Source of the DNA: a virus | Taxonomy: Duplodnaviria > Heunggongvirae > Uroviricota > Caudoviricetes | DNA length: 64,000 nt | IMG/VR virus record: IMGVR_UViG_2925891887_000001 | Strand: one strand, 5' to 3' | In this document: piece by piece, positions 984 through 35,569 of the stretch | Layout of the letters: the number at the start of each line of letters is the position of its first letter | How positions within the stretch are numbered: position 1 is the first letter of the stretch | The notes under the pieces: generated by a model | The model's database searches: none | What the model was told of the DNA's origin: nothing | What the model saw: the letters and a program-made list of their open reading frames with translations, nothing else | Made by a program: the position numbers and the translations under genes

Positions 984-1731
984 ATTAAGCCGCTCGCAGT
1001 TTTTGCAGGTATTTGCAGTGATGCAGTCGATAAAACTGATCAATGGGCATACTTCCAATGGTGCGGCTCCACGTATTCTGTGGGGCAGCAACAATATTGA
1101 CGGAGTACAATTTGCCGCGTTGCTTGGTCTAATATCCGAGACGCCATTGATGCAAAGTTTGAAATCACTACCACCTGGATGTATTGCGCCGATCCTGATT
1201 AATCCTTTTGTTGAGGGGGGATATCTTCCCAACGTCGGGCCTGGGTTTATTGCATCCCATGAAACTGAAGATCTTAACATTAATAGCGAAGGGTTCTTTG
1301 GGGGAATGGGTGCGCATCACTGTATGGCTTTCACGAACCTTATTCGACTTGCCAATAAGCGGGTGGATAGTTTGGCATCGCCAGGTGATGCTTTTACTGG
1401 TTTCCTTATCCAAAGGAGAGATAAAAAGTACAGTGCGGACAAACTACAGTTTGTTGGTAAGTATGGAGAAATGGTAGAAATCGAACTTCAGCTCCCTCAT
1501 GTTTTAGCAAACGATAGTGCAGACAGTCGGAGGCTGTTGGGCATCATGCGTCATTTCATAGCAAGTGGTGTTAAACATGCCGCAGATAAACATGCCGCAG
1601 ATAAACGTGTCACGCAGGAAAATGAGTATTCAGACTTTGCAAACTCTCCCCAACCAACGTTGCAAACGGCAATAGTAACCAATTCGTTGGAGGCGAGATT
1701 ATTGGAAAACCCTATATGGGGAACATGGTAA
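973..1731 (+). CDS. hypothetical protein (252 aa)
   Basis: ORF start overlaps end of upstream gene; no motif recognised. Confidence 0.45.
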   Translation: MSFKLSRSQFLQVFAVMQSIKLINGHTSNGAAPRILWGSNNIDGVQFAALLGLISETPLMQSLKSLPPGCIAPILINPFVEGGYLPNVGPGFIASHETEDLNINSEGFFGGMGAHHCMAFTNLIRLANKRVDSLASPGDAFTGFLIQRRDKKYSADKLQFVGKYGEMVEIELQLPHVLANDSADSRRLLGIMRHFIASGVKHAADKHAADKRVTQENEYSDFANSPQPTLQTAIVTNSLEARLLENPIWGTW

Positions 1732-1740
1732 GGAGACTAT

Positions 1741-2310
1741 ATGAGTAAAAAAATCAGCGTAGTTGGTGTTGATCCCTCTATGAGCAACTTTGGGCTTGCT
1801 GTGGGCACTTTAGACCTTGAAACGGACGAACTTGAGATTCACGGCCTTACTCTTGTTGAGACTAAGGCGGGGAGTGACAAAAAGACCGTTCGTGTGAACA
1901 GTGACGATCTGCGTCGTGCCAGTGAAATATGGCGTGTTGCGAAGCCAATCATTGATAAGGCAAATATGGTTTTTTGTGAGCTACCGGTTGGGAGCCAAAG
2001 CTCTCGTTCGCAGACGTCTTACGGTATTTGTATCGGTGTACTTGCGTGTGTGGATAAGCCATTGATCCAGGTTACTCCAAACGAAATTAAGCATTTTGTC
2101 GGCAATAAACTTACTACATCGAAAGAAGAGATTATCCAGTGGGCTACGAAAAAACACCCTAAAGCACCGTGGCTGCGTCGTAAGCAATCTGGACAGGATG
2201 TTCTCGTGAACAAAAACGAACATTTGGCTGATGCGGTGGCTGCCATCCATACCGGTATGCAAACAGATCAGTTCCGCCAGGTGCGCGATGTTCTTAAGTC
2301 TCTCATTTGA
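1741..2310 (+). CDS. putative RuvC-like Holliday junction resolvase
   Basis: SD AAGGAG upstream; N-terminal VVGVDPS acidic motif, later CELPV and DAVAAIH, resembling RuvC/A22-type resolvases. Confidence 0.45.
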   Translation: MSKKISVVGVDPSMSNFGLAVGTLDLETDELEIHGLTLVETKAGSDKKTVRVNSDDLRRASEIWRVAKPIIDKANMVFCELPVGSQSSRSQTSYGICIGVLACVDKPLIQVTPNEIKHFVGNKLTTSKEEIIQWATKKHPKAPWLRRKQSGQDVLVNKNEHLADAVAAIHTGMQTDQFRQVRDVLKSLI

Positions 2311-2344
2311 TTTCATTGATAGGTAAGTACTTATCTATTAACAT

Positions 2345-2377
2345 GGGCCACTATATTTAGTGGCCCTCTTTATTTGG
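2345..2377 (+). terminator. intrinsic terminator-like hairpin
   Basis: gggccactatatttagtggccc stem-loop followed by tctttattt. Confidence 0.5.
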
Positions 2378-2383
2378 TGATAC

Positions 2384-4699
2384 ATGATAAGCATCGTAAA
2401 ACGTAACGGCCAAACAGAGCCGTTATCCGAAGAAAAATACAACCGCGTCGTAATGTATGGCGTAGAAGGCATTCGTGGTGTAAGCGCATCCGCTGTAGCA
2501 ATGGGAGCTGCGGCCAGCATTTTTGATGGGATGACCACCAGCCAGTTGCATGAGGCTTTGGTTAAATCTGCCGCTGATTTGATCTCACCAGAAGCACCAA
2601 ATTACTCACAGGTGGCTGCCCGCCTGAACATTTTTAAAATCCGCAAAGATGCCTTCGGTCGTTACGACTATCCGAACTTCTACCAACACATTGTCAAGAA
2701 CGTTAACAAGGGCGTTTATGACAAGGATTTGCTGACACATTATTCGTTTGAAGAGATCGAAGAACTCGGCAATTACATTAAGCCTAAACGTGACGATCTT
2801 TTTGGCTATGCAGCTACGGTGCAGTTGCAAAGCAAATACCTCGTTCAAAACCGTGTTACTGGTGAGATTCATGAGGGGCCGCAACATATCTATATGCTGG
2901 TAGGCATGTGTCTGTTCCAGAATTGGGAAGACGACTGCGCTGGCAAAACACGTATGGAGATGGTCAAAGGTTTCTATGACGTTACAAGTACGTTCAAACT
3001 GTCTCTGCCCACACCAATCATGGCCGGCGTCCGTACTCCAACCCGTCAGTTCTCCAGTTGTGTGCTGATTGAGTCTGGCGATAGTCTGAAAGGGATTAGT
3101 GCAGCTTCAGCCGCAATTATCGACTACGTTTCACGTCGTGCTGGAATTGGTATTGGTTTTGGCCGTATCCGTGCGCTGGGCAGCGAGATCCGCAATGGTG
3201 AAGCCACCCATACCGGAGTTATTCCATTCCTGAAGCATTTCCAGACGGCTGTTAAATCTTGTTCGCAAGGTGGTGTTCGTGGTGGCGCAGCAACAGCGTT
3301 TTACCCGATCTGGCATCTTGAAGTTGAAAGTCTGCTGGTGGTGAAAAATAACCGTGGTATTGATGAAAACCGCGTTCGCCATCTTGATTACGGCGTCATG
3401 AGTAACCGTCTAATGTACCGTCGACTCGTCAGAAGCGAGAACATCACTCTGTTCAGCCCGCATGATGTGCCTGATATGTACGAAGCCTTCTTCACAGACC
3501 AGGAGCTGTTTGAAAAGCTGTACCATAAATACGAAGCCGATGATTCAATTCGCAAGAAGTCAGTACCTGCCATTGAGCTGTTCTCATCTCTGATGCAGGA
3601 ACGAGCGTCCACGGGCCGAATTTATATTGCGAACGTCGATCATATTAATGAGCATGGCGCTTTCATTCCTGCTCTTGCACCTGTCCGCCAGTCAAACCTG
3701 TGTATGGAGATCACCCTACCCACCCGTCCACTGGCATTTACCGACGACCCGAACGGTGAGATCGCGCTATGCACTTTATCCGCTTTTAACCTCGGAGCCA
3801 TCCGTTCACTGGAGTCTCTTAAAGAGGTGGCGTTCTATGCCGTTGCTGCACTGGATTCGTTACTGGATTATCAAGACTATCCGATGGAGGCAGCCGAAGT
3901 GCCTGCCAAAGCTCGTCGTAGCTTGGGAATTGGTGTAACCAACTTTGCTTATTACCTGGCAAAGAATGGCGTTCGTTATTCTGATACCGCTGGCAATAAA
4001 CTGGTGCATGAAACATTCGAAGCTATCCAGTATTACCTTCTTGATGCCAGCTGCCGACTTGCTGAAGCAAAAGGTGAGTGTGACTGGTTTGAGCAGACCA
4101 AGTACGCAATTGGTCAGTTGCCGATCGACCATTACCGTTCTTCATTAGACGAAAGTGGCGAAACCAACTTTGAGTTAAAGATGCCGTGGGAAGAACTGCG
4201 TGAACGTATTGCAAAATACGGCCTTCGCAACTCCACACTGACGGCACAAATGCCATGCGAGACTTCCAGCCAGATCACTAATTCCACCAACGGCATCGAA
4301 CCGCCTCGTGGCCCGGTGTCGGTGAAATCTTCTAAGGACGGCATCGTTAAGATGGTCGTGCCTGAGTTTGAAAAACTGAAGGAACAGTATGAATACCTGT
4401 GGGATATGCCGGACAACCGCGGCTATCTGACAAAGGTGGCGATCATCCAGAAGTTCTTTGACCAGGCTATTTCAGCCAATACCAACTATGACCCTTCTCG
4501 CTTTGAAGGCGATAAAGTCCCAATGATGACGCTACTGTCAGATTTGCTTCTCGCCTACAAGATGGGAGTTAAAACGCTTTACTACCACAACACCAGAGAT
4601 GGGGCAGGAAAGCGTGATGACGACGAACCGCAAAATCCACTGACGCAAGCTGTAGCCGTCGAGCCAGAAGATGAGTGCGACGGAGCCTGCAAAATCTGA
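2384..4699 (+). CDS. nrdA: ribonucleoside-diphosphate reductase alpha subunit (class Ia, with ATP-cone)
   Basis: 771 aa; near-colinear with E. coli NrdA as I recall it (PTPIMAGVRTPTRQFSSCVLIE, NLCMEI, C-terminal CDGACKI). Confidence 0.93.
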   Translation: MISIVKRNGQTEPLSEEKYNRVVMYGVEGIRGVSASAVAMGAAASIFDGMTTSQLHEALVKSAADLISPEAPNYSQVAARLNIFKIRKDAFGRYDYPNFYQHIVKNVNKGVYDKDLLTHYSFEEIEELGNYIKPKRDDLFGYAATVQLQSKYLVQNRVTGEIHEGPQHIYMLVGMCLFQNWEDDCAGKTRMEMVKGFYDVTSTFKLSLPTPIMAGVRTPTRQFSSCVLIESGDSLKGISAASAAIIDYVSRRAGIGIGFGRIRALGSEIRNGEATHTGVIPFLKHFQTAVKSCSQGGVRGGAATAFYPIWHLEVESLLVVKNNRGIDENRVRHLDYGVMSNRLMYRRLVRSENITLFSPHDVPDMYEAFFTDQELFEKLYHKYEADDSIRKKSVPAIELFSSLMQERASTGRIYIANVDHINEHGAFIPALAPVRQSNLCMEITLPTRPLAFTDDPNGEIALCTLSAFNLGAIRSLESLKEVAFYAVAALDSLLDYQDYPMEAAEVPAKARRSLGIGVTNFAYYLAKNGVRYSDTAGNKLVHETFEAIQYYLLDASCRLAEAKGECDWFEQTKYAIGQLPIDHYRSSLDESGETNFELKMPWEELRERIAKYGLRNSTLTAQMPCETSSQITNSTNGIEPPRGPVSVKSSKDGIVKMVVPEFEKLKEQYEYLWDMPDNRGYLTKVAIIQKFFDQAISANTNYDPSRFEGDKVPMMTLLSDLLLAYKMGVKTLYYHNTRDGAGKRDDDEPQNPLTQAVAVEPEDECDGACKI

Positions 4700-4804
4700 C
4701 ATATGGTGGGGTGTATCCCCACCTTCTCTTTGATTTGTAAGCCTTGTTTAAACAAATAAGATAACAACTTGTTTAAACACATCAAAAAGCAAAAGGAAAA
4801 ACAC

Positions 4805-5947
4805 ATGTCATATTCAACGTTCCGTTTGGGTGCTAATGATGCAACCAAAGAGCCTATGTTCCTCGGACAATCTGTCAACGTGGCACGTTACGATCAGCAA
4901 AAATACCGTGATTTTGAAAAGTTGATTGAACGTCAATTGTCTTTCTTCTGGCGGCCGGAAGAAGTTGATATTTCGAGCGATCGTATCGACTTCAACACGA
5001 AGCTGCGGGACCACGAACGTCACATTTTTCTGAGCAATCTCCGTTATCAAACGTTACTCGATTCAGTTCAGGGACGTAGCCCAAATGCAACGCTGCTGCC
5101 GCTTATCTCTATTCCTGAACTGGAAACGTGGGTTGAAACATGGTCTTTCTCTGAGACTATCCATAGCCGCAGCTACACCCACATTATTCGTGGCATGGTG
5201 GACGATCCGAGCATTGTTTTTGACGGTATTGTTACGGATGAAGAAATCATCAACCGAGCGATCAGTATCTCTGCTGAATATGACAGGCTTTATGGGATGA
5301 CCTGCGAGCGCCAGTCGTTAGGTGAGAAAGAGTTTGAACGTCTGTACGTAAATGAATATGGCTGGGAGCCATACCCTTTGCATCGTCAGCTTTTCCGCAC
5401 GTTGGTGTCCATTAATGCGCTTGAGGCGATCCGTTTCTACGTAAGTTTTGCATGTACGTTTGCCTTTGGTGAACGGAAGTTGCTTGAGGGTAACACCAAA
5501 ATTATGCGCTTTATTGCCCGTGATGAAGCTCTGCATTGCGAAGGAACTGAACGCATGATCCGCTTCATGCGTACCGGTCGCGAAGGTTTATTGTGGAAAG
5601 AGATTGCTGCTGATGAAGAAAACGTCATTTACGACACCATGAAATCAGTCGCCGAACAAGAAATGAACTGGGCAGACTATCTCTTCAAAGACGGTTCGAT
5701 GATTGGTTTAAACGCGGATATTCTCAAAACCTATGTAAAATACCGCACCAATCTGGCTATGAATCGTCTTGGCCTGAAGGCTTTATTTCCAGAAGTTACC
5801 ACTGATCCGCTGGTCTGGATGAACAAGTGGTTGTTAACCGACACACTGCAAATTGCACCACAAGAGGCAGAGCAAAGCACATATCTGGTAGGTCAGATAG
5901 ATTCTACCGTGGATAAGGCTTCTCTAAGCCAGTTTGCAGACCTGTAA
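4805..5947 (+). CDS. nrdB: ribonucleoside-diphosphate reductase beta subunit
   Basis: Start moved to internal ATG (MSYSTF...) preceded by AAAAGGAAAAACAC leader; colinear with E. coli NrdB ([29 protein letters not shown], di-iron ligands). Confidence 0.93.
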
Positions 5948-6024
5948 ACCGATACAAAGCATTATGTGGCCTGGCAACGCTGGGCCACAATGGATCACAA
6001 GAATTAAGAAGGAACAAAACTAGC

Positions 6025-6894
6025 ATGAACTTTACCAAACTGACTGACCACCTGAAACTTGCCACCGATCGACTCATTGGATTTAAGCCAGAACCATATG
6101 AGTTGCATGAAGGCCATGGTGTAGCCACTGAAAGTATTTACAAGATGGTCGATCAGTTTCATGAACTCTTCCAGCATCCGAGACGCGTTATGCCGACACC
6201 AGCGCTGCTTCGTCTCCGTGCAAGCCTGATTCATGAAGAAGCTGTAGTGGAAGGTATTCCAGCCGCAATGAATGGGGATATTGAGCAACTGCTGGATGCA
6301 ATGGCCGACTTTTTATACGTTGGTGTTGGTACGATGGTCGCCATCAAAGGTGGTATTTCTACCGGCATGACCTATTACACGCAGGAACAGAGCATTGATC
6401 GCTTTATGCAGACAATTTTTGTGCCTGGTAACACTGTTTTCGATGATATGGCAATGCCATTTCAGGAAGCTCGTGAGGCGTCATGTATGCTCGAAGAGCT
6501 GGCAGATAAACTTGAGAACAAGACTGTTAAGGATTCTGAGCTGATTCAGGAACTGCGCCGTGTAATGAACAAAATCTATGTGGCGTGCATGATGACCTAT
6601 CGACTGGCTGATTTCCTCGGTATCAATGTTGTCGAGCTGGTTGGCGAAATTCATCGGTCCAACATGACAAAATTATGGCCTGCAGATGCCGAAGAGCGTC
6701 GCCATGCTGTGGCCAACTGCAAATACGACTCTTCTGACCTGGGATTTCGCCATGCTGATGGCACCGATAAGATGATCGGTTTTCGAATTTCCGATGGAAA
6801 GATTCTGAAGTCTCCAACCTATAGTGATGTCGATTTATCCTCCTTTGTTGAGCAAGCTAAAGCCTCAGCAATGTACGGAATGATCAAAAAATAA
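6025..6894 (+). CDS. putative MazG-like nucleoside triphosphate pyrophosphohydrolase (tandem domains)
   Basis: SD AAGGAAC; two acidic helical segments resembling MazG/HisE EExxE motifs; tentative. Confidence 0.35.
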   Translation: MNFTKLTDHLKLATDRLIGFKPEPYELHEGHGVATESIYKMVDQFHELFQHPRRVMPTPALLRLRASLIHEEAVVEGIPAAMNGDIEQLLDAMADFLYVGVGTMVAIKGGISTGMTYYTQEQSIDRFMQTIFVPGNTVFDDMAMPFQEAREASCMLEELADKLENKTVKDSELIQELRRVMNKIYVACMMTYRLADFLGINVVELVGEIHRSNMTKLWPADAEERRHAVANCKYDSSDLGFRHADGTDKMIGFRISDGKILKSPTYSDVDLSSFVEQAKASAMYGMIKK

Positions 6895-11900: not shown

Positions 11901-12494
11901 ATGATTGCAGCCGAAAAAATCAAACAGCGAAAGCGCGACAACTCTCTTCGTGACCTCTGGAGAACACCTGACTGGCTGTTTTCTGCCATTCAACGTTATC
12001 TTGGAGTGACATTTGATGTTGACGTTGCCTGCAACAAGGACAATGCAAAGCTGCCTAATTTCATAGGCGTTGAGCGTGATGCTTTGAAATCTGAATGGGG
12101 ACAGCCAGGTACAATTGCCTTCCTCAATCCACCCTACTCCAAAATCTACCCCTGGATTGATGCGGCTATACGTGAGCAGGCTCGCGGAGTTACAACAGTG
12201 ATGCTAATTCCTCAATCCCTCGATACAAAGTGGTATGAGCGTGCAACAGAGTGTGCGAATGAGACGATTATTCTGTCTGGTGGCCGCGTAGCGTTTGTCG
12301 AGCCTGACGTAAATCTGGGTCAGGTAGAAGTAAACATCAACCCAGGTGGCAGTATGCTCGTTGTTTTTCGAGGATTCTGTCAGGACGCTGGGCACTCTAT
12401 AAGCAAGATCCCTTTGGACGTCATGAAAAGTCTGGGAGGGTATGATCCTGCGAATGTGATCAGGAAAAAAAGACCATCAAAGAAGGCTGCTTAG
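11901..12494 (+). CDS. dam: DNA N6-adenine methyltransferase (phage Dam-type)
   Basis: 197 aa with catalytic NPPYS motif and phage Dam-like layout. Confidence 0.7.
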   Translation: MIAAEKIKQRKRDNSLRDLWRTPDWLFSAIQRYLGVTFDVDVACNKDNAKLPNFIGVERDALKSEWGQPGTIAFLNPPYSKIYPWIDAAIREQARGVTTVMLIPQSLDTKWYERATECANETIILSGGRVAFVEPDVNLGQVEVNINPGGSMLVVFRGFCQDAGHSISKIPLDVMKSLGGYDPANVIRKKRPSKKAA

Positions 12495-15017: not shown

Positions 15018-15443
15018 ATGTTAGGTTTCTTCAAAAAGAAAACTCGTAAAGCTGTTATCGAAGTCAAAAAAATGGAGAACCGTGATGCGGTTGAGGCCAC
15101 CGTGTGGGGCGCGTACATGATCTCCTATGCCGACGGCACATGTGACGCAAAAGAAATTGCCATTCTTGAGAAGACAATTGCAGCTCTGCCTGCGTTTTCT
15201 CCGTTTGCTGGTGAAATTGCCCAAATGAGCGCCAATATCCGTGCTCGTTACGAAGCGTCCCCTCGTTCTGCTAATGCACAGGCTATTCGTGAGCTGTCTG
15301 ATATTGCGGGTACTCCAGAGGCGGTCGATGTTCTGTGTCTGTGCCTTGATATTGCCGATCAGGACGGCATTGGTGAACAAGAAGAGCAGGCACTGAAAAA
15401 GATCGCCCAGGCGCTTCAGTTGTCACTGGATGCTTATCTCTAA
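15018..15443 (+). CDS. TerB-like domain protein
   Basis: Two helical ADG/ADQDG...E segments (YMISYADGTCDAKEIAILEK, LCLDIADQDGIGEQEEQAL) typical of TerB-family proteins. Confidence 0.45.
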   Translation: MLGFFKKKTRKAVIEVKKMENRDAVEATVWGAYMISYADGTCDAKEIAILEKTIAALPAFSPFAGEIAQMSANIRARYEASPRSANAQAIRELSDIAGTPEAVDVLCLCLDIADQDGIGEQEEQALKKIAQALQLSLDAYL

Positions 15444-16307: not shown

Positions 16308-16448
16308 TACAGCACCAGTCGACAGGGGGCGACAGCCCCCATTTTTACGCCTTAAATCTGCTGTAACGCCTATGAATGCAGCTTTTATGCCTTTTCAAGT
16401 TTGCGATAATTACACCAATCAGAAAACAAATTATTTAATGGTGTAATT

Positions 16449-18134
16449 ATGAATACAGCCCTTTCCATCATCGACGATGCCAGCTCAAACACGGCTATCG
16501 ACTATCGTCAGGAAATGAATGTCATCCACGAAATCGTGGCCGAGTGCGAGAAAGAGATCGCCTTCATGTATCAGGTACACGACTTCGTTTATGGCGACGA
16601 ACGCCACAACATGATTAATCGCCTGCTGAGACTAAACCATCGACCAGATGAAGATCGCTCGCGTTTAAATCGAGGTTGGTTGGATAAAGTCGATCTGGAA
16701 TGGGTGAAACAGAATATTTGGGCCGAGTACTGGAGGAAGGTCACGGACATGACTAACGTTTTGCTGATCATGCCAGCTTCCCGTCGAGATGAGTGGCGCG
16801 AGCAGTTTATAGAGGGCAAACAGGAAGTCATCAAAACTGACAGAACCGGCTACCAGATGAAGGTTAAAGAGTTCGTTGGTGTACCGGAGTTCAAAGCAGA
16901 AACGGTCATACCCACGATGCTTAATTTGCTGAATGACAGGCACAAATATCTCTCTGAGCGCGTGTATGGCTTGTTTAAGGCGCTGAGTCCTGCGCACAAG
17001 ACAAATAAGACAAACGGTTTCAGCGAGCGGCTGATAATCGCTGACTGCATTTCTGATTTCTGGCGGGACAGCGTTAGCGTGAACTATCGCAAAGAGGACT
17101 ACATCGACGATCTGCGTGTCTTGCTTCATTTCTTCGCGCACAAAGAATTTATTACCATCAATCGCACTGCTGAGGTGCTATCAGCTGCGTATCGGGCAAA
17201 CGACTGCCAGACCGGTGACTGGATGAACGTCGATGGAAATCTGATGCGCGTGAAGATGTTCAAGAACGGCAACGTTCACTTTGAAATACATCCTGACGTG
17301 GCCTGGAAGTTGAATGAGGTGCTGGCTTACAGTATGCCTGCTGCAATCCCCGCGCCATGTCGCACCGCGCCAAAAACACGGGCACCAAAGCAGTTCGGGT
17401 TAATCCAGAAGACGATCTCCGTGCCGGTTCGCACTGCGCTTCGTGACGGGCGATTGAGCAAAGACAAAGGCGTATGGTACTTCTCTGATTCAGCTCTCCA
17501 GAAGTCGCAGGTGGAAGAGCTTGAGCGCACACTGAGCTTCATTGGCGGCGTGCAGGAGAAAAAACACTGGCAGTTCCCGTATGAGATCGGCCATACGCTA
17601 AATACGATTGTGGCTACCGGATTAATACCGGATACAAAATCACACCAGTTCTACCCTACCCCACGCTTGATTGCTGAGTACGTTGCCAGAGCCACTGAAT
17701 TGAAGTCTGGTGAGAAGCTGCTGGAGCCTCAAGCCGGACGTGGGGATCTTCTGGCCTATATCAACGCCGATCTGGAAGATGTTACCTGCATAGAAATCGC
17801 ACCTCTCTTCGCTGATATCCTGCGCGGAAAAGGGTATACGAACACGATTTGCTGCGACTTCATAAAGTGGTCTGAGGACAACGTAGGTTATCAGTTCGAC
17901 AAAATCGTTATGAACCCGCCGTACTCGCTTGGTCGTCATAGAGAGCACACGCTGGCTGCGCTGGGGCATCTGAAAGTCGGCGGGCGTCTTGTAGCAGTAT
18001 TGCCGGGCACTGCGCCAATACTGGACTGGATGACGATGGATAATTACGTTTATGCCAGAGGGAAGTCGTTTACCAACGAGTTTGAAGACACAGGGATCAC
18101 AGTCAGCGTATACGTTTTCAAACGCGTTAAATGA
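16449..18134 (+). CDS. DNA N6-adenine methyltransferase with large N-terminal domain of unknown function
   Basis: C-terminal about 170 aa carry gamma-class motifs: QFYPTP (X), EPQAGRGDL (I, SAM-binding), NPPYS (IV); N-terminal about 390 aa unassigned. Confidence 0.7.
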   Translation: MNTALSIIDDASSNTAIDYRQEMNVIHEIVAECEKEIAFMYQVHDFVYGDERHNMINRLLRLNHRPDEDRSRLNRGWLDKVDLEWVKQNIWAEYWRKVTDMTNVLLIMPASRRDEWREQFIEGKQEVIKTDRTGYQMKVKEFVGVPEFKAETVIPTMLNLLNDRHKYLSERVYGLFKALSPAHKTNKTNGFSERLIIADCISDFWRDSVSVNYRKEDYIDDLRVLLHFFAHKEFITINRTAEVLSAAYRANDCQTGDWMNVDGNLMRVKMFKNGNVHFEIHPDVAWKLNEVLAYSMPAAIPAPCRTAPKTRAPKQFGLIQKTISVPVRTALRDGRLSKDKGVWYFSDSALQKSQVEELERTLSFIGGVQEKKHWQFPYEIGHTLNTIVATGLIPDTKSHQFYPTPRLIAEYVARATELKSGEKLLEPQAGRGDLLAYINADLEDVTCIEIAPLFADILRGKGYTNTICCDFIKWSEDNVGYQFDKIVMNPPYSLGRHREHTLAALGHLKVGGRLVAVLPGTAPILDWMTMDNYVYARGKSFTNEFEDTGITVSVYVFKRVK

Positions 18135-18194: not shown

Positions 18195-18899
18195 ATGAGC
18201 AACCTCCAGTTAGAGCATTTTAACGTCACAGGCCATTCCGATTTTCCTTTCAAGTTTACATTGAAAGGTTATGCAGAGGATGCGGTAGGCCAGATCATTA
18301 TTGATAAAGACATCGTTAAGTTTGAGGGGAATTTTGATGAATCCGCGAAAACATTCATAGACTTCGTTGCCAAACGTTGGAGCGAGCAATGGAAAAACCT
18401 GGAAAAGCGCGCCAATGAGTTTGATCGGTTCATGGATGCAATGGATACAGCAAAAGAGGCTCTTGATGCCGGGACTCCGTTAGATCTGGAGTCACTTTTC
18501 AACGGCGAAGTGGCCTCTGCGATGTTCGCCACCATGTTCGCGGGTGAGTTCGTCCGCAGCGGTGCCAAAAACTACCTTGAGCTGGATTACAACGTCCCTG
18601 CAATTGGCGATTTCGTCGTTACCATCCAACGCAAAGAAGGTAAGACGCCAGGTGAACGCGTCGCAGAGCTTGAGGCCGTTGTGGATCAGCGTAACGGAGA
18701 GTGTGACCGTTTGATCAACGAGCTTCATGCACTTCGGGAAGAAAGAATATGTGCGGGTAGCAATACACGTAATGCAGCGGATATCTACTTCCAGTTAGTT
18801 GAGGAATGCCAGATTCCACCAGGTGGCTCTCTTGTCGATTACGTCAGACATTTAATGGCGGAAGTTAACTCCAGCCATAAAGATGGTGAGGTGCGCTGA
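18195..18899 (+). CDS. hypothetical protein (234 aa)
   Basis: Conserved leader AGAGAAAACACATG. Confidence 0.45.
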   Translation: MSNLQLEHFNVTGHSDFPFKFTLKGYAEDAVGQIIIDKDIVKFEGNFDESAKTFIDFVAKRWSEQWKNLEKRANEFDRFMDAMDTAKEALDAGTPLDLESLFNGEVASAMFATMFAGEFVRSGAKNYLELDYNVPAIGDFVVTIQRKEGKTPGERVAELEAVVDQRNGECDRLINELHALREERICAGSNTRNAADIYFQLVEECQIPPGGSLVDYVRHLMAEVNSSHKDGEVR

Positions 18900-19279
18900 T
18901 GTTTGGCATTGACGCACAGCGTATAGCCGCTTTTGCAAAAAGCCCTCTTGATAATCCCTTGTCTCGTAGTGAGCAAATGGAGCTGGCAAGGCTTTTTATT
19001 CACATTCAAAAACAGGCAGACGTTTTCAATAACATGCCTAATCAACCTATTCTGGATGGTCACATCCAGATGGTCATTAACAGTCATGAGAAAGGCTGGG
19101 CTGCAATCGTCCCCTGCACAATTACATACAGGTTGGCGAAAGAGGTTCAAGAGTTTCGAAAAGCCAGTGTCGAATCGGAGTCTACCAAAGCCGCAATAAA
19201 CACTCTTATTCGCATGGGGTTCACATGGACCGGTGGAGCCTACTGGCAAGCACCTCACCCCATTTTATCCGGCAATTAG
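18899..19279 (+). CDS. hypothetical protein (126 aa)
   Basis: ATG overlaps upstream stop. Confidence 0.4.
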   Translation: MFGIDAQRIAAFAKSPLDNPLSRSEQMELARLFIHIQKQADVFNNMPNQPILDGHIQMVINSHEKGWAAIVPCTITYRLAKEVQEFRKASVESESTKAAINTLIRMGFTWTGGAYWQAPHPILSGN

Positions 19280-19441
19280 ACGCTACAAATCCTTCGGCAT
19301 GAATAAATAAAGGCCATAAGTTGTGGCCTTAAATAAATTGTTTTCTACCTTTTCTTATTTGTGAAAATAACCACAACTAGAAAACAACGGAGTTAAGAAT
19401 GTCTAGTATTTCCGAAGCTCATATGTTCGCCGCTGGCGCTC

Positions 19442-19568
19442 GGTGATGCTGCCAACTTACTGATTTAGTGTATGATGGTGTTTTTGAGGTGCTCCAGTGG
19501 CTTCTGTTTCTATCAGCTGTCCCTCCTGTTCAGCTACTGACGGGGTGGTGCGTAACGGCAAAAGCACC
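19442..19568 (+). mobile_element. IS1 fragment (left terminal inverted repeat through insA codon 24 only)
   Basis: Identical to IS1 positions 1-127 and to the reverse complement of the complete IS1 at 54445-55212; identity stops abruptly inside insA. Confidence 0.9.
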
Positions 19569-19577
19569 ACCTTTTTA

Positions 19578-20678
19578 TCACACTGCGCGGAATGCGATTT
19601 CGCCAGGTATTACTTCACCTTGCCAATACATTTGGGCAGCAACGCGATCTGCGAGGTCACGATAAATAGCCGTAAATTCACTATCTGGACGACTAATAAC
19701 GGTTGGTGTTCCGTTATCCAGATCTTCACGAAGAGAGATATGAAGTGGCATTTGGCCTAACAACTGCGTGTTGTATTTCTCGGCCAGTTTCTGTGCGCCA
19801 CCGGTGCCAAAAATTGGCTCGTGATGACCGCAGTTACTGCAAATATGCACACTCATGTTTTCAACGATACCCAGTACCGGCACTTCGACTTTTTCGAACA
19901 TCACAATGCCTTTCTTCGCATCGATCAGCGCGATGTCTTGCGGCGTAGTTACCACAACCGCACCAGTTACAGGAATGTTCTGCGCCAGCGTCAATTGAAT
20001 ATCACCAGTGCCCGGTGGCATATCGAGAACGAGATAGTCCAGATCAGGCCACAGTGTTTCCTGCAACATCTGCATCAGCGCCTTGCTGGCCATCGGTCCA
20101 CGCCACACCATTGCATTGTCGTCGGTGACCAGATAACCAATAGAGTTGGTTGCCAGGCCATGAGACATGATAGGTGCCATGTGAGTACCGTCCGGTGAGG
20201 TTGGACGTTGGTTTTCCGCGCCCAGCATGGTTGGAATTGATGGACCATAGATATCGGCATCCAAAATACCAACTTTCGCACCTTCAGCAGCCAACGCCAG
20301 TGCCAGGTTTACCGCCGTGGAGGATTTACCCACGCCGCCCTTGCCCGAGCTGACGGCGATAATGTTCTTAACGCCATTAATGCCTGGTTGGTTTTTGACG
20401 CGCTTAAGCGTGGCAATGTTGTACGACAGCTTCCAGTCAATAGCCTTTGCGCCAGTGATACGGAGCAGATCACCACTACATTGCTCTTTCAGGTCTTCAA
20501 AAGGCTTATTCCACACGAAAGGCATGATTAGTTCGACATGCAGTGTGTCATCCATCAACGCAACATGGTGTAACGCTTTAAGCGTAGTCAGGTTGTGTTT
20601 CAGGGTTGGGTGCTGAAAATTAGCCAGCGTACCGGCTACCATTGCTCTCAGGGCATCCGGCGATTTGGACTCGCTCAT
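19578..20678 (-). CDS. apbC: Fe-S cluster carrier ATPase Mrp/ApbC (E. coli chromosomal gene)
   Basis: 366-aa ORF with deviant Walker [12 protein letters not shown], CxxC pair (ICSNCGHH) and near-identity to E. coli Mrp as I recall it. Confidence 0.9.
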
Positions 20679-20835
20679 CCCGTCTCCTTTATTTTAATTT
20701 GCGCAATTGTCGCCTTGTAGTGTACTCCAGCTACGACATTTAATCATTTATGAGAAATGCTGTTATCACATGGCAGACATAAGGCCATTTTGTTACTATC
20801 AAGCCCCTTTTCACTACAAAGAAGTAATGCCTACT

Positions 20836-22869
20836 ATGACCCAAGTCGCGAAGAAAATTCTGGTGACGTGCGCGCTGCCGTACGCTAACGGCTCAATCCA
20901 CCTCGGCCATATGCTGGAGCACATCCAGGCTGATGTCTGGGTTCGTTACCAGCGAATGCGCGGCCACGAGGTTAATTTCATCTGTGCCGACGATGCCCAC
21001 GGTACGCCGATCATGCTGAAAGCACAGCAGCTTGGTATCACACCGGAGCAGATGATTGGCGAAATGAGTCAGGAACACCAGACTGATTTCGCAGGCTTTA
21101 ACATCAGCTATGACAACTATCACTCGACGCACAGCGAAGAGAACCGTCAGTTGTCTGAGCTTATCTATACTCGCCTGAAAGAGAACGGTTTTATTAAAAA
21201 CCGTACTATCTCTCAGTTGTACGACCCGGAAAAAGGCATGTTCCTGCCGGATCGTTTTGTGAAAGGCACCTGCCCGAAATGTAAATCCCCGGATCAATAC
21301 GGCGATAACTGCGAAGTCTGCGGCGCGACCTACAGCCCGACTGAATTGATCGAGCCGAAATCGGTGGTTTCTGGTGCTACCCCGGTAATGCGTGATTCTG
21401 AACACTTCTTCTTTGATCTGCCCTCTTTCAGCGAAATGTTGCAGGCATGGACCCGCAGCGGTGCGTTGCAGGAGCAGGTGGCAAATAAAATGCAGGAGTG
21501 GTTTGAATCCGGCCTGCAACAGTGGGATATCTCCCGCGACGCGCCATACTTTGGTTTTGAAATTCCGAACGCGCCGGGCAAATATTTCTACGTCTGGCTG
21601 GACGCACCGATTGGCTACATGGGTTCTTTCAAGAATCTGTGCGACAAGCGCGGCGACAGCGTAAGCTTCGATGAATACTGGAAGAAAGACTCCACCGCCG
21701 AGCTGTACCACTTCATCGGTAAAGATATCGTTTACTTCCACAGCCTGTTCTGGCCTGCCATGCTGGAAGGCAGCAACTTCCGCAAGCCGACCAACCTGTT
21801 TGTTCATGGCTATGTGACGGTGAACGGCGCGAAGATGTCCAAGTCTCGCGGCACCTTTATTAAAGCCAGCACCTGGCTGAATCATTTTGACGCTGACAGC
21901 CTGCGTTACTACTACACTGCGAAACTCTCTTCGCGCATTGATGATATCGATCTCAACCTGGAGGATTTCGTTCAGCGCGTGAATGCCGATATCGTGAACA
22001 AAGTGGTTAACCTGGCGTCCCGTAACGCTGGCTTTATCAATAAGCGTTTTGACGGTGTGCTGGCAAGCGAGCTGGCTGACCCGCAGTTGTACAAAACCTT
22101 CACTGATGCCGCTGAAGTGATTGGTGAAGCGTGGGAAAGCCGCGAATTTGGTAAAGCTATCCGTGAAATCATGGCACTGGCTGACCTGGCTAACCGCTAT
22201 GTCGACGAGCAGGCTCCTTGGGTAGTCGCAAAACAGGAAGGTCGCGATGCTGACCTGCAGGCGATTTGCTCAATGGGCATCAACCTGTTCCGCGTGCTGA
22301 TGACTTACCTGAAACCGGTACTGCCGAAACTGACAGAACGTGCGGAAGCATTCCTGAATACGGAACTGACCTGGGATGGCATCCAGCAACCGCTGCTGGG
22401 CCATAAAGTGAATCCGTTCAAAGCACTGTATAACCGTATCGACATGAAACAGGTGGAAGCATTGGTGGAAGCGTCTAAAGAAGAAGTGAAAGCTACTGCC
22501 GCGCCAGTTACTGGCCCGCTGGCAGACGACCCGATTCAGGAAACCATCACCTTTGACGACTTTGCCAAAGTTGACCTGCGCGTGGCACTGATCGAAAACG
22601 CAGAGTTTGTTGAAGGTTCTGACAAACTGCTGCGCCTGACGCTGGATCTCGGCGGTGAAAAACGCAATGTCTTCTCAGGCATCCGTTCTGCTTATCCAGA
22701 CCCACAGGCACTGATTGGTCGTCACACCATTATGGTGGCTAACCTGGCTCCGCGTAAGATGCGCTTCGGCATCTCCGAAGGTATGGTGATGGCTGCTGGC
22801 CCCGGCGGGAAAGATATCTTCCTGTTAAGCCCGGATGCTGGTGCTAAACCTGGCCACCAGGTTAAGTAA
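20836..22869 (+). CDS. metG: methionyl-tRNA synthetase (E. coli chromosomal gene)
   Basis: 677 aa from [26 protein letters not shown]; HIGH-type motif, KMSKS, zinc knuckle CPKC...CEVCG; essentially identical to E. coli MetG. Confidence 0.95.
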
Positions 22870-22889
22870 TTAAGCAACCTCTGTTCGCA

Positions 22890-22918
22890 ATGCCCGGCAA
22901 CACGCTGGGCATTTTCAT
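22890..22918 (+). terminator. terminator-like hairpin downstream of metG
   Basis: atgcccggcaacacgctgggcat followed by tttcat. Confidence 0.4.
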
Positions 22919-22952
22919 ATAGACACAATCCCTCCTGATTTACACAAGCCTT

Positions 22953-22967
22953 AAAACAATTTGTTTT
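22953..22967. promoter_or_regulatory. motif A palindrome AAAACAATTTGTTTT (second copy at 23002-23017)
   Basis: First phage-type element to the right of the host segment. Confidence 0.5.
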
Positions 22968-23030
22968 CTACCTTTTGTTGATTGAGATAATAAGCCACAT
23001 AAGAAAACAAATTGTTTCGGAGTGGTTGAA

Positions 23031-31326: not shown

Positions 31327-31851
31327 TTAAAATGGAAGGATTCGTTCAACCCAATCGAAGAAAACAAGTATTTTTCTGCCGTCTTCTAACTTAAGAGTGA
31401 CCTGGCAAGCATCAACGCCTCTTGACACCCCTTCTATTTCACGACCGTCTGTCATGTAGACCCTTATAGATTGGTCGTTTTGATAAGCCTTGCGACATAT
31501 CGCAAAAAAGTCACGGCGTGATGGCTGATTGTCAACATAGTCTGGATGTATTGTTAGCCTACCTTTGAACTCGCGAGCAATGTCATCGATTACACCTGAT
31601 TCAATTGTGCTAATGCGCTCAAGTGGGAGTCTTATACGATTTTCTTTATCATATGGAATCGGGCATAAATCTAGCTTATTGCGTGAAGGCATTGTCCCCT
31701 GAACGTACATGCAAAACACCTGACCGTCTTCAAGCGTGACTCTTACAGGAATGTTGTTCTTCCGCCAGAACATAAGTATGTTCTCAGCATGTTCGTAGTC
31801 TCGCGGCCAGACTTCAGCCGGTATGCCGTAGGTGATGTCCAATGTTCTCAT
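31327..31851 (-). CDS. hypothetical protein (174 aa), AT-rich cassette
   Basis: 4-nt overlap with upstream gene (translational coupling). Confidence 0.45.
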   Translation of the reverse strand: MRTLDITYGIPAEVWPRDYEHAENILMFWRKNNIPVRVTLEDGQVFCMYVQGTMPSRNKLDLCPIPYDKENRIRLPLERISTIESGVIDDIAREFKGRLTIHPDYVDNQPSRRDFFAICRKAYQNDQSIRVYMTDGREIEGVSRGVDACQVTLKLEDGRKILVFFDWVERILPF

Positions 31852-34009: not shown

Positions 34010-35569
34010 CTAATCTCGTTTCAGAACTCCAAAATCGAATGCGCCATCAACAGGCAATACACCTTCTGCAAAGCCAGGTGTGGTGTCGATGATGTGTTTT
34101 CGCTCATAAGAGTGAGACAACAGGTATTTGTTGCTAATGTCAATGAAATCAGTGATAAAACACACGTTTGCCTGATTCTTCTTGGCTCGTAAGCCACGAC
34201 CGACACGTTGTCTCATTTCAACTTCTGCTTTCCCACCACCAGCAAGAATGACCGCACCAACGCTTGGCACATCAACACCGACATCCAGAATAGTCGAGCC
34301 TATTAAAACATCTATGTCGCCAGACGCTAAACTGTTCAGCTTTGCTTGCCTTGTCGACTGGTTCGATTCCCCATAAATGAAGTCAACTCTAAGGCCGGAC
34401 TCTTTCATCATTTCCATCAGGATTTGCCCGTGGCGTTTAAGACGAACCAGAGTCATACAATTGAGAGAATGTTGCTTATAGAGCAATGCTTCGCGAACAA
34501 TGGCCTCATTACGTCCCAAATTATACACGATCCCCAACTGATAAGCCTTTTGGTAGGCAGTGCTCATACCTACTCTAAAATTGAGGTGTTTGTTGGCAAG
34601 TTCTGCCTTGATTCTGGCCTCGTCCGGCTTGTAGGCAACTTTATGATAAAGGAAGTATGGCTTTGCCAGAATGCCTCTATCAATCAGGTACTTTTCCGTG
34701 ACTTTTATTTCAATTCGCCCGGCCACTGCCATCAGACGCATGTTGGCTTCCGTAGAATCCTTCATGAACGGCGTTGCCGTAAGCGCCAGGCGATAGTCTG
34801 CGTTCGCACATAATCTGGCAATGTCATAGAAATTAGAGCCTGAAGACTCATGCGCCTCTTCCAGAATAAGAAGAGAGACACTTGAAAGGAAGCGTTTCAC
34901 CAAGTCCCGACGTTTGAGGTGGTAGCTCTTCTTATCTGGAGTTGCATCGCGTGGTGGTTCTTCAAGGAAACTTGCCAGAGTTTGAACTGTAGCGACGTTG
35001 ATATGTCGTGATACCTGGAACTCACCCGAGCCAATGACTCCAACCTTTTGGTCTTTTAACCACGGTTCGCCATTTTCGGCGCGGTAGTCGATGGATCTCT
35101 GGAAGTTTTCGGCCATCTGAAACATCAGAACAGAGCGGGTTGTTAAAAATAATGTCATTCGACCGATACGTGCAGCTGCTTTGCAGGCAACATTAGATTT
35201 CCCGCCACCAGTAGCGATCTGCGCAATCATCATTCCCTCTCGAACCAGTGTTTCCACAGTCTGATCCTGATATGCATAATCAGGATTGTATGGGAATGGG
35301 TTGACCGCCGGATTTGGCTTTCCAAGCGCCGGAGCTTTGTCTTTGCGGATATGAACACATTTGATGCCCGCCTTGTTCAAGTTCGCCGCTACAGGCTTGG
35401 CAAAGCCAGCAGGGAACGAGTTTTTACTCCAGTTGAACATCGTGCTTGTGCCCTTCCAGTCGCCAGTCTCGACTTCGTAGCTCAACATCTGTTGCACCAG
35501 TTGCTTTACCTTGTCATCTGCGCCAGAAATAAGTGCATTTACTGCGTTAGATACAATCCGAACAGTCAT
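34010..35569 (-). CDS. SF2 (DExH-type) helicase
   Basis: Walker A TGGGKS, motif II LEEAH, motif III LTATP, motif VI RQRVGRGLR; SD AAGAGG. Confidence 0.8.
   Translation of the reverse strand: MTVRIVSNAVNALISGADDKVKQLVQQMLSYEVETGDWKGTSTMFNWSKNSFPAGFAKPVAANLNKAGIKCVHIRKDKAPALGKPNPAVNPFPYNPDYAYQDQTVETLVREGMMIAQIATGGGKSNVACKAAARIGRMTLFLTTRSVLMFQMAENFQRSIDYRAENGEPWLKDQKVGVIGSGEFQVSRHINVATVQTLASFLEEPPRDATPDKKSYHLKRRDLVKRFLSSVSLLILEEAHESSGSNFYDIARLCANADYRLALTATPFMKDSTEANMRLMAVAGRIEIKVTEKYLIDRGILAKPYFLYHKVAYKPDEARIKAELANKHLNFRVGMSTAYQKAYQLGIVYNLGRNEAIVREALLYKQHSLNCMTLVRLKRHGQILMEMMKESGLRVDFIYGESNQSTRQAKLNSLASGDIDVLIGSTILDVGVDVPSVGAVILAGGGKAEVEMRQRVGRGLRAKKNQANVCFITDFIDISNKYLLSHSYERKHIIDTTPGFAEGVLPVDGAFDFGVLKRD

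Follow-up and report, generated by a model that had tools for sequence, protein, structure and literature searches.

Orphan methylases are one of the main routes by which phages and plasmids escape restriction. They form a prominent anti-defence class in the leading regions of plasmids (PMC11541004), and for M.EcoGIX, an orphan methylase from a plasmid, protection of incoming DNA has been demonstrated (PMC7736820). M.EcoGIX and M.BceJIII are plasmid-encoded, single-strand-specific orphan N6-methyladenine (m6A) methylases of the beta class with a DPPY motif (PMC7736820). The gamma-class enzymes M.TaqI, M.BseCI and CamA, which are Type II or orphan N6-adenine DNA methyltransferases, carry a C-terminal target-recognition domain (TRD) after the catalytic core. 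Here we analyze a gene at positions 16449..18134 (+ strand) of a 64,000-nucleotide stretch of viral DNA (IMG/VR record IMGVR_UViG_2925891887_000001, referred to as the window in the following), which represents an E. coli phage-plasmid of the SSU5/pHCM2 type. The gene encodes a protein of 561 amino acids (aa) in which, unlike in these gamma-class enzymes, nothing follows the methyltransferase core and a 395-aa region with the Pfam domain DUF4942 precedes it. We consider it slightly better than even (about 55%) that the protein is a stand-alone orphan adenine-N6 methyltransferase, which would use S-adenosylmethionine (AdoMet) to modify the element's own DNA for self-protection or epigenetic control.

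The open reading frame (ORF) is complete, starts with ATG, and matches PHROG 6263 (DNA methyltransferase) from end to end (E 5.5e-300). The window is almost colinear with plasmid AnCo1 (NZ_KY515224.1), which has terminase, portal, capsid and tail genes as well as genes for a RepB replication initiator and ParB-domain proteins. This combination identifies the element as a phage-plasmid. AnCo1 carries the same ORF at identical coordinates, annotated in RefSeq as "DUF4942 domain-containing protein". The DNA of the gene is 100% identical in several E. coli plasmids of about 110 kb, and 85 records reach 99% identity or more. At the protein level, the "DNA methyltransferase" of Salmonella phage SSU5 is 92% identical. 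Members of the family are present, at near full length, in more than 2,100 plasmid records. The perfect identity across many E. coli plasmids, together with hundreds of diverged homologues, shows that the gene is not a chance ORF. The family is already catalogued, as Pfam DUF4942, as PHROG 6263, in RefSeq and under the SSU5 annotation, and its general role is as expected, so that the element of surprise is limited.

A HMMER search of 1.84 billion cluster representatives placed the N-terminal domain in 612 clusters (50% identity). Nearly all of these contained proteins of 500-590 aa that carry the domain N-terminally, indicating that the two-part architecture is fixed. For conservation analysis we used 86 diverged representatives with about 30% identity, all of which contained DUF4942 (PF13708). 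In the protein from the window, DUF4942 spans aa 140-295 and scores 74 bits against a cutoff of 25. The earlier note on this DNA had called the N-terminal region unassigned, which holds for the approximately 395 aa except for this Pfam domain. Shorter representatives (328-414 aa) were inspected as candidates for a stand-alone DUF4942 protein, and rejected: the six sequences that we read were truncated or frame-broken fragments or had extensions. As a separate observation, short ORFs on large Klebsiella plasmids, annotated as "hypothetical protein", match only the first 43-62 aa of the protein with 65-68% identity. These may be gene remnants or a shared N-terminal module.

The catalytic core and its likely substrate

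The C-terminal part (aa 396-561, 17634..18131; all features of the protein lie on the + strand) is a complete, minimal Rossmann-fold AdoMet-dependent amino-methyltransferase core. The three motifs listed by the earlier note were all present in the proposed order. Motif X, QFYPTP (aa 400-405, 17646..17663), is followed by motif I, EPQAGRGDL (aa 426-434, 17724..17750), which forms the AdoMet-binding loop and aligns with LEPACAHGPF of M.TaqI. Motif IV, NPPYS (aa 489-493, 17913..17927), aligns with NPPY of M.TaqI and corresponds to the catalytic pocket for the target amino group. The acidic motif II residue E449 and the pair D470-F471 are also found. This X-I-IV order, like the AdoMet-dependent Rossmann-fold catalytic domain itself, is that of the gamma class (M.TaqI type). 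Among the 86 representatives, Q400, E426, G430, N489, P491 and H500 were invariant, and Y402, P403, T404, P427, A429, G432, E449, D470, F471 and P490 near-invariant, while position 492 was either Y or F. The invariance of catalytic and AdoMet-binding residues indicates that the enzyme is under selection to be active. The core is a presumably active (N/D)PP(Y/F) amino-methyltransferase of the gamma (TaqI/HsdM) type.

Downstream of NPPY only 69 aa remain. In an AlphaFold2 model built from 25 homologues, which had a mean predicted local distance difference test (pLDDT) score of 82 and about 85-95 over most of aa 400-560, all of these residues formed the last strands of the Rossmann core, leaving no space for the C-terminal TRD of the gamma class. 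The suggestion of a compact core without room for such a domain was thus borne out.

No Pfam methyltransferase family scored above threshold in the 561-aa protein. N6_Mtase (PF02384, HsdM/Type IIG-like) reached 13.7 bits against a cutoff of 20.4, over aa 400-441 only, and matched 18 of the 86 relatives at E <= 0.1. The best PADLOC matches were mad2 (5e-15) and the Type II methylase (MTase_II) models (2.8e-10). A profile of the core from 18 diverged members, compared with the PDB, found M.TaqI as the best match (E 4e-5), with archaeal DIMT1/KsgA (1e-4), a further DNA adenine methylase (2e-4) and Erm close behind.

The motifs and the fold predict that the target of the core is the exocyclic amino group of adenine; that this adenine sits in DNA we infer from the context. 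It might instead belong to host ribosomal or transfer RNA (rRNA or tRNA), or the methylated residue could be a protein glutamine, in which case the enzyme would serve host takeover. The closest structural neighbours of the core were METTL5 and PH1948, and the E-values for KsgA/DIMT1 and Erm were within 3- to 10-fold of the value for M.TaqI. In addition, Pfam MTS and RrnaAD matches occurred among family members, and NCBIfam gave weak ksgA matches. Enzymes of the METTL5, PH1948 and KsgA types act on rRNA, and METTL5 needs TRMT112. We consider a substrate other than DNA very unlikely, since the best sequence-profile match is a DNA enzyme, M.TaqI, since motif X has the form QFYPTP(R), which we take to be the HsdM/TaqI type, since the best family matches were the mad2 and DNA MTase_II models of PADLOC, and since the gene repeatedly adjoins DNA methylase genes on mobile elements (see below).

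The N-terminal region

A separate model of aa 1-395 had a pLDDT of 83 and a predicted template modelling (pTM) score of 0.73, so that the structure prediction proposed by the earlier note yielded a confidently predicted fold. The model consists of long helices (aa 20-121), an indel-prone hairpin (aa 124-142), an alpha/beta core (aa 150-305), and a small alpha/beta unit (aa 325-390). Fold and profile comparisons of the N-terminal 395 aa with solved structures revealed no significant likeness to a TRD, to HsdS, to a winged helix, or to any other solved fold.

Conservation, expressed as information content in the 86-sequence alignment, differed between the parts of the protein. The N-terminal segment (aa 1-79, 16449..16685) is acidic (net charge -6), mostly helical (helices at aa 20-48 and 52-62, pLDDT below 50 for residues 1-18) and poorly conserved (1.47 bits per column). 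The following alpha/beta core (aa 80-305, 16686..17363), which includes DUF4942, is the most conserved part of the family, with 2.41 bits per column for aa 80-122, 2.54 for aa 146-305, and 3.1 for aa 261-300 within it. The corresponding value for the catalytic core (aa 396-561) is 2.32. A variable linker and small alpha/beta subdomain (aa 306-395, 17364..17633), located directly before the catalytic core, has 1.62 bits per column, dropping to 0.82 at aa 341-360.

Invariant residues of the N-terminal domain were W95, L179, S180, H183, T185, N186, I196, W258, H277, N289 and L292; D221, L222, R223, D262, G263, G274, E279 and P282 were near-invariant. Two segments carry several of them. The first is the loop LSPAHKTN (aa 179-186, 16983..17006), in which L179, S180, H183, T185 and N186 do not vary. 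This LSxxHxTN loop is the sole internal segment that AlphaFold could not place (residues 182-186 had pLDDT below 50 in both models), and a loop that is invariant yet unplaced is typical of segments that become ordered on ligand binding. The second is HFEIHPD (aa 277-283, 17277..17297) at a strand-to-helix junction, with the invariant H277, the near-invariant E279, H281 and P282 (H281 was invariant in the 25 closer homologues), and then N289 and L292.

Within a methylase family, sequence variation usually resides in the classical TRD. The proposal that the N-terminal 390 aa as a whole supply target recognition, or else another activity, was therefore upheld only in part: recognition by the entire region fits poorly, because its DUF4942 core is the most conserved portion, the variability lies in aa 306-395, and the region resembles no known TRD. 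This variable segment appears to be the best candidate for specificity-determining contacts. A match of aa 328-560, as a single unit, was found inside phrog_9133 (a 1259-position profile, E 3e-50). We interpret the DUF4942 core as a family-constant module that probably engages substrate or partner, or possibly as a second active site.

Under the preferred explanation of an orphan DNA adenine methyltransferase, substrate engagement has to come from the N-terminal 395 aa, because the core has no TRD of its own. On the model of M.TaqI, the core would methylate N6 of a target adenine that it flips into the NPP(Y/F) pocket, with bound AdoMet as the methyl donor. The DUF4942 core, with its LSxxHxTN loop and HxExHP...N cluster, would hold the nucleic acid or a partner, and the variable aa 306-395 would tune which sequences are modified. 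With a candidate recognition domain this conserved, one shared short motif or a relaxed specificity is expected.

Several points weigh against this explanation. A recognition domain would not typically be better conserved than the catalytic domain, as the DUF4942 core is, and the invariant His, Glu, Asn and Asp residues of this core would suit an active or ligand-binding site as well as a DNA-binding surface. Furthermore, a search of the literature on DUF4942, on SSU5/pHCM2 methylases and on phage-plasmid orphan methylases found no functional study and only passing mention of DUF4942. The protein could also be bifunctional, with a DUF4942 region that mainly provides a second activity, for example as a metal-dependent enzyme or as a binder of a host defence or replication protein. 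The peak of conservation at aa 261-300, the invariant H183, T185, N186, H277 and N289 with the near-invariant D221, R223, D262, E279 and H281, which are typical of active or ligand sites, and the absence of any solved fold matching DUF4942 all agree with this. The phage family phrog_38825, about 299 aa long and stand-alone, matches aa 129-302 (E 6e-6) and hints that the domain can exist without a methylase. We nevertheless regard a mainly second activity as unlikely: at E <= 0.1, none of the 86 members matched a catalytic family, be it of nucleases, hydrolases or other enzymes, fusion of the domain to the methylase is nearly universal, and those shorter "stand-alone" representatives that we inspected were truncated fragments.

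A homologue in Pseudomonas phage Dolphis is annotated as "RE endonuclease", which prompted us to consider a PD-(D/E)XK or His-Me finger nuclease in the N-terminal domain. No nuclease family was matched in the 86 members at E <= 0.1. The strands where a PD-(D/E)XK site would fall (aa 198-215) are variable, which rules out such a site there, and there was no structural match. The nuclease reading was set aside, although a small cryptic metal site is conceivable.

More speculatively, DUF4942 could be a new functional domain rather than a passive module for recognition. It might act as a novel nucleic-acid clamp that gives the core relaxed, near sequence-independent or single-strand activity, or it might be a second catalytic or defence-binding domain that works jointly with the methylase. 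We think this doubtful, but if true it would define a widespread, unrecognized class of mobile-element anti-defence enzymes on SSU5-like phage-plasmids and IncHI resistance plasmids, and the clamp version would be a broad-spectrum anti-restriction enzyme made from a minimal methylase core.

Orphan methylases on mobile elements

A second methylase is encoded in the window at 11901..12494 (+), as the earlier note had recognized. The 197-aa protein carries NPPYS at aa 76-80 (nt 12126-12140) and matches two curated families over its full length and above cutoffs, PF05869 (131.6 bits, cutoff 28.1, E 2.9e-38) and TIGR01712 (113.2 bits, cutoff 97.05, E 8.4e-33), as well as PHROG 111. These matches identify it as an ordinary small phage Dam-family N6-adenine methyltransferase (T1/HP1/VT2 type), and we assume from the family that its specificity would be GATC. 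The window contains 277 GATC sites where about 250 are expected, and thus shows no depletion.

The two-part fusion was found on IncHI plasmids, temperate phages and prophages. In six of the seven loci that we examined, window included, other DNA methylase genes (Dam, N6_N4, C5) were located beside the fusion gene. In IncHI2 and IncHI1 plasmids, about 2 kb separate a full-length homologue (30% identical) from a Dam-family methylase, and the vicinity contains no nuclease. In a Variovorax prophage, the homologue comes after repressor/cro-like genes, and the next gene encodes an N6_N4 methylase. In an Enterobacterales prophage, it comes after replication genes and stands between an N6_N4 methylase and a C5 methylase. 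These prophage settings are lambdoid early regions. In another phage, the homologue is upstream of the gene for the large terminase. Throughout, members of the family were orphan and located on mobile elements, and they often lay in methylase clusters.

The absence of a cognate restriction endonuclease, also claimed by the earlier note, was confirmed: none was detected among the scanned neighbours in the window, none is annotated anywhere on AnCo1, and in none of the seven loci did a restriction gene adjoin the methylase. The single HNH endonuclease gene of AnCo1 is about 80 kb away. Neither an adjacent cognate endonuclease nor S or R subunits, which a restriction-modification system would have, accompany the gene in these loci. 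It is conceivable that a nuclease was overlooked and that the protein is the modification half of such a system, or a fused restriction-modification enzyme, as the annotation of the Dolphis homologue and a superfamily 2 (SF2) helicase with a Pfam "ResIII" match (34010..35569, -) might suggest. We judge this extremely improbable, since no nuclease domain was found in the protein or its neighbours. As for the helicase, its ResIII match covers a helicase motor only, in a 519-aa protein that is 16 kb away on the other strand, and we rejected it as a cognate restriction subunit.

The methylase pairing in six of seven loci fits a self-protection role. In this scenario, the DUF4942 protein and the Dam-type enzyme would pre-methylate the phage-plasmid DNA during plasmid maintenance and lytic replication, making progeny DNA less sensitive to the restriction systems of the next host. 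Virion DNA, which the earlier note had proposed for methylation calling, represents only one of two states of the element, since it is a phage-plasmid. The idea that two orphan methylases serve anti-restriction is plausible in outline: orphan status and pairing were borne out, and the anti-restriction role itself is read from context. Context, including a related core among antirestriction genes of the IncF leading region (see below), and literature, by analogy, support a protective role without proving it.

A regulatory role of the methyl marks would also be possible. With the same DNA m6A chemistry, the enzyme could mainly exert epigenetic control over the replication, packaging or lysis-lysogeny decisions of the element rather than protect it from restriction. 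Dam methylation controls P1 in this way. The gene is situated in a DNA-metabolism and replication block of the phage-plasmid, prophage copies occur in the early region beside replication genes, and a conserved candidate recognition domain fits a single fixed regulatory motif. On the other hand, the family occurs on unrelated replicons that differ in how they replicate and package their DNA, which speaks against a single regulatory site particular to one element, and clustering with up to two further methylases looks more like a protection toolkit. We consider a primarily regulatory function unlikely.

The family occurs on clinically relevant elements, namely SSU5/pHCM2-like phage-plasmids, some of them with CTX-M, and IncHI1/IncHI2 multiresistance plasmids. 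Knowledge of the specificity would explain part of the host range of the carrier elements, and would add a methylation motif that now confounds the interpretation of methylomes. The N-terminal domain is large, well predicted, strongly conserved and without a solved relative, so that its structure in complex with substrate would reveal a novel mode by which nucleic acid is presented to a minimal methyltransferase core.

Gene surroundings and comparison with known systems

The gene lies in a + strand block for nucleotide and DNA metabolism that comprises nrdAB, thymidylate synthase, dihydrofolate reductase, a 3'-5' exonuclease, the Dam-type methylase, RNase HI and a TerB-like protein (15018..15443, +, PF05099 E 2.4e-7). 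A protein with a MazG/PRA-PH-type pyrophosphohydrolase domain (6025..6894, +, PF01503 E 1.3e-8) is encoded in the same block. Between the upstream ORF and the methylase gene, a terminator-like GC hairpin with a T-run (16325..16340, +), identified by consensus match only, suggests that the methylase gene starts its own transcription unit. Downstream are two co-oriented ORFs of 234 and 126 aa (18195..19279, +), which belong to PHROG 8364 and 10451, both of unknown function. Pfam and PADLOC scans of the two gave no matches above cutoff, and a DrmE_N match of the 234-aa ORF (E 0.008) was below cutoff and disregarded. The two ORFs are probably not partners of the methylase, because it has different neighbours in other elements.

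Further downstream, the phage-plasmid carries a host-type housekeeping pair, apbC/mrp for an Fe-S cluster carrier (19578..20678, -) and metG for methionyl-tRNA synthetase (20707..22869, +). An aminoacyl-tRNA synthetase gene is unusual on a phage-plasmid. At least 80% of the region 19300-23000 is present in 201 plasmid records, and those listed are E. coli phage-plasmids of about 107-114 kb and one of 218 kb. About 3.3 kb that AnCo1 has between the 126-aa ORF and apbC are missing from the window; they hold five ORFs, one of which encodes an S24 peptidase. At about 30.4-36 kb, a minus-strand block of low GC (0.36-0.40) contains a gene for a FljA-like "repressor of phase-1 flagellin" (31327..31851, -, PF03614 E 3e-80), through which the phage-plasmid may repress host flagellin expression. 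The SF2 helicase, with ResIII, DEAD and Helicase_C domains, is at the edge of this block and could be a replication or an accessory/defence module; with the exception of the FljA-like one, the minus-strand ORFs near it had no Pfam matches.

Among known systems, the small Dam methylases of phages T1, HP1 and VT2 resemble the second methylase of the window, being TRD-less with an NPPY motif, and there is no notable difference between them. The minimal RNA adenine methyltransferases METTL5, PH1948 and KsgA, unlike the DUF4942 protein, have no DUF4942 and no mobile-element context. P1 DarB was considered as a relative and set aside, as there was no P1 record among the phage matches listed or tallied. 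M.EcoGIX and M.BceJIII are functional analogues only, with another domain arrangement. Membership in the M.EcoGIX family was rejected, because the DUF4942 protein has the X-I-IV order and NPPY motif of the gamma type and not the beta-class order with DPPY.

The core is shared (E 1e-8 to 3e-50) with giant multidomain phage proteins of 1,200-3,900 aa (PHROGs 9133, 15406, 11358 and 10691, profiles of 1,259-3,925 positions), in which the DUF4942 core lies outside the match. The segment embedded in such proteins corresponds to aa ~397-520 (17637..18008), and some of them are annotated as "PLxRFG protein" or "internal virion", which suggests that the core module is also delivered within ejected phage proteins.

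A homologous core (32% identity over 121 aa, E 3e-16) is found in the stand-alone 187-aa "class I SAM-dependent methyltransferase" of IncF leading regions (WP_012881140 type, pHK09). It is, like the DUF4942 protein, an orphan on a mobile element, where it occurs among ssb, psiB, psiA and antirestriction genes; it differs in having no DUF4942 domain. At the pHK09 locus (4506-6477), the 187-aa protein is preceded by a 453-aa DUF3560 protein. That the DUF4942 protein is a fused form of this split system was considered and rejected, as DUF3560 is not homologous to the N-terminal domain (hhalign probability 0.4%). With its gamma-type core behind a DUF4942 region, the protein can be seen as a variation in architecture on a familiar theme, the orphan methylase of mobile elements.

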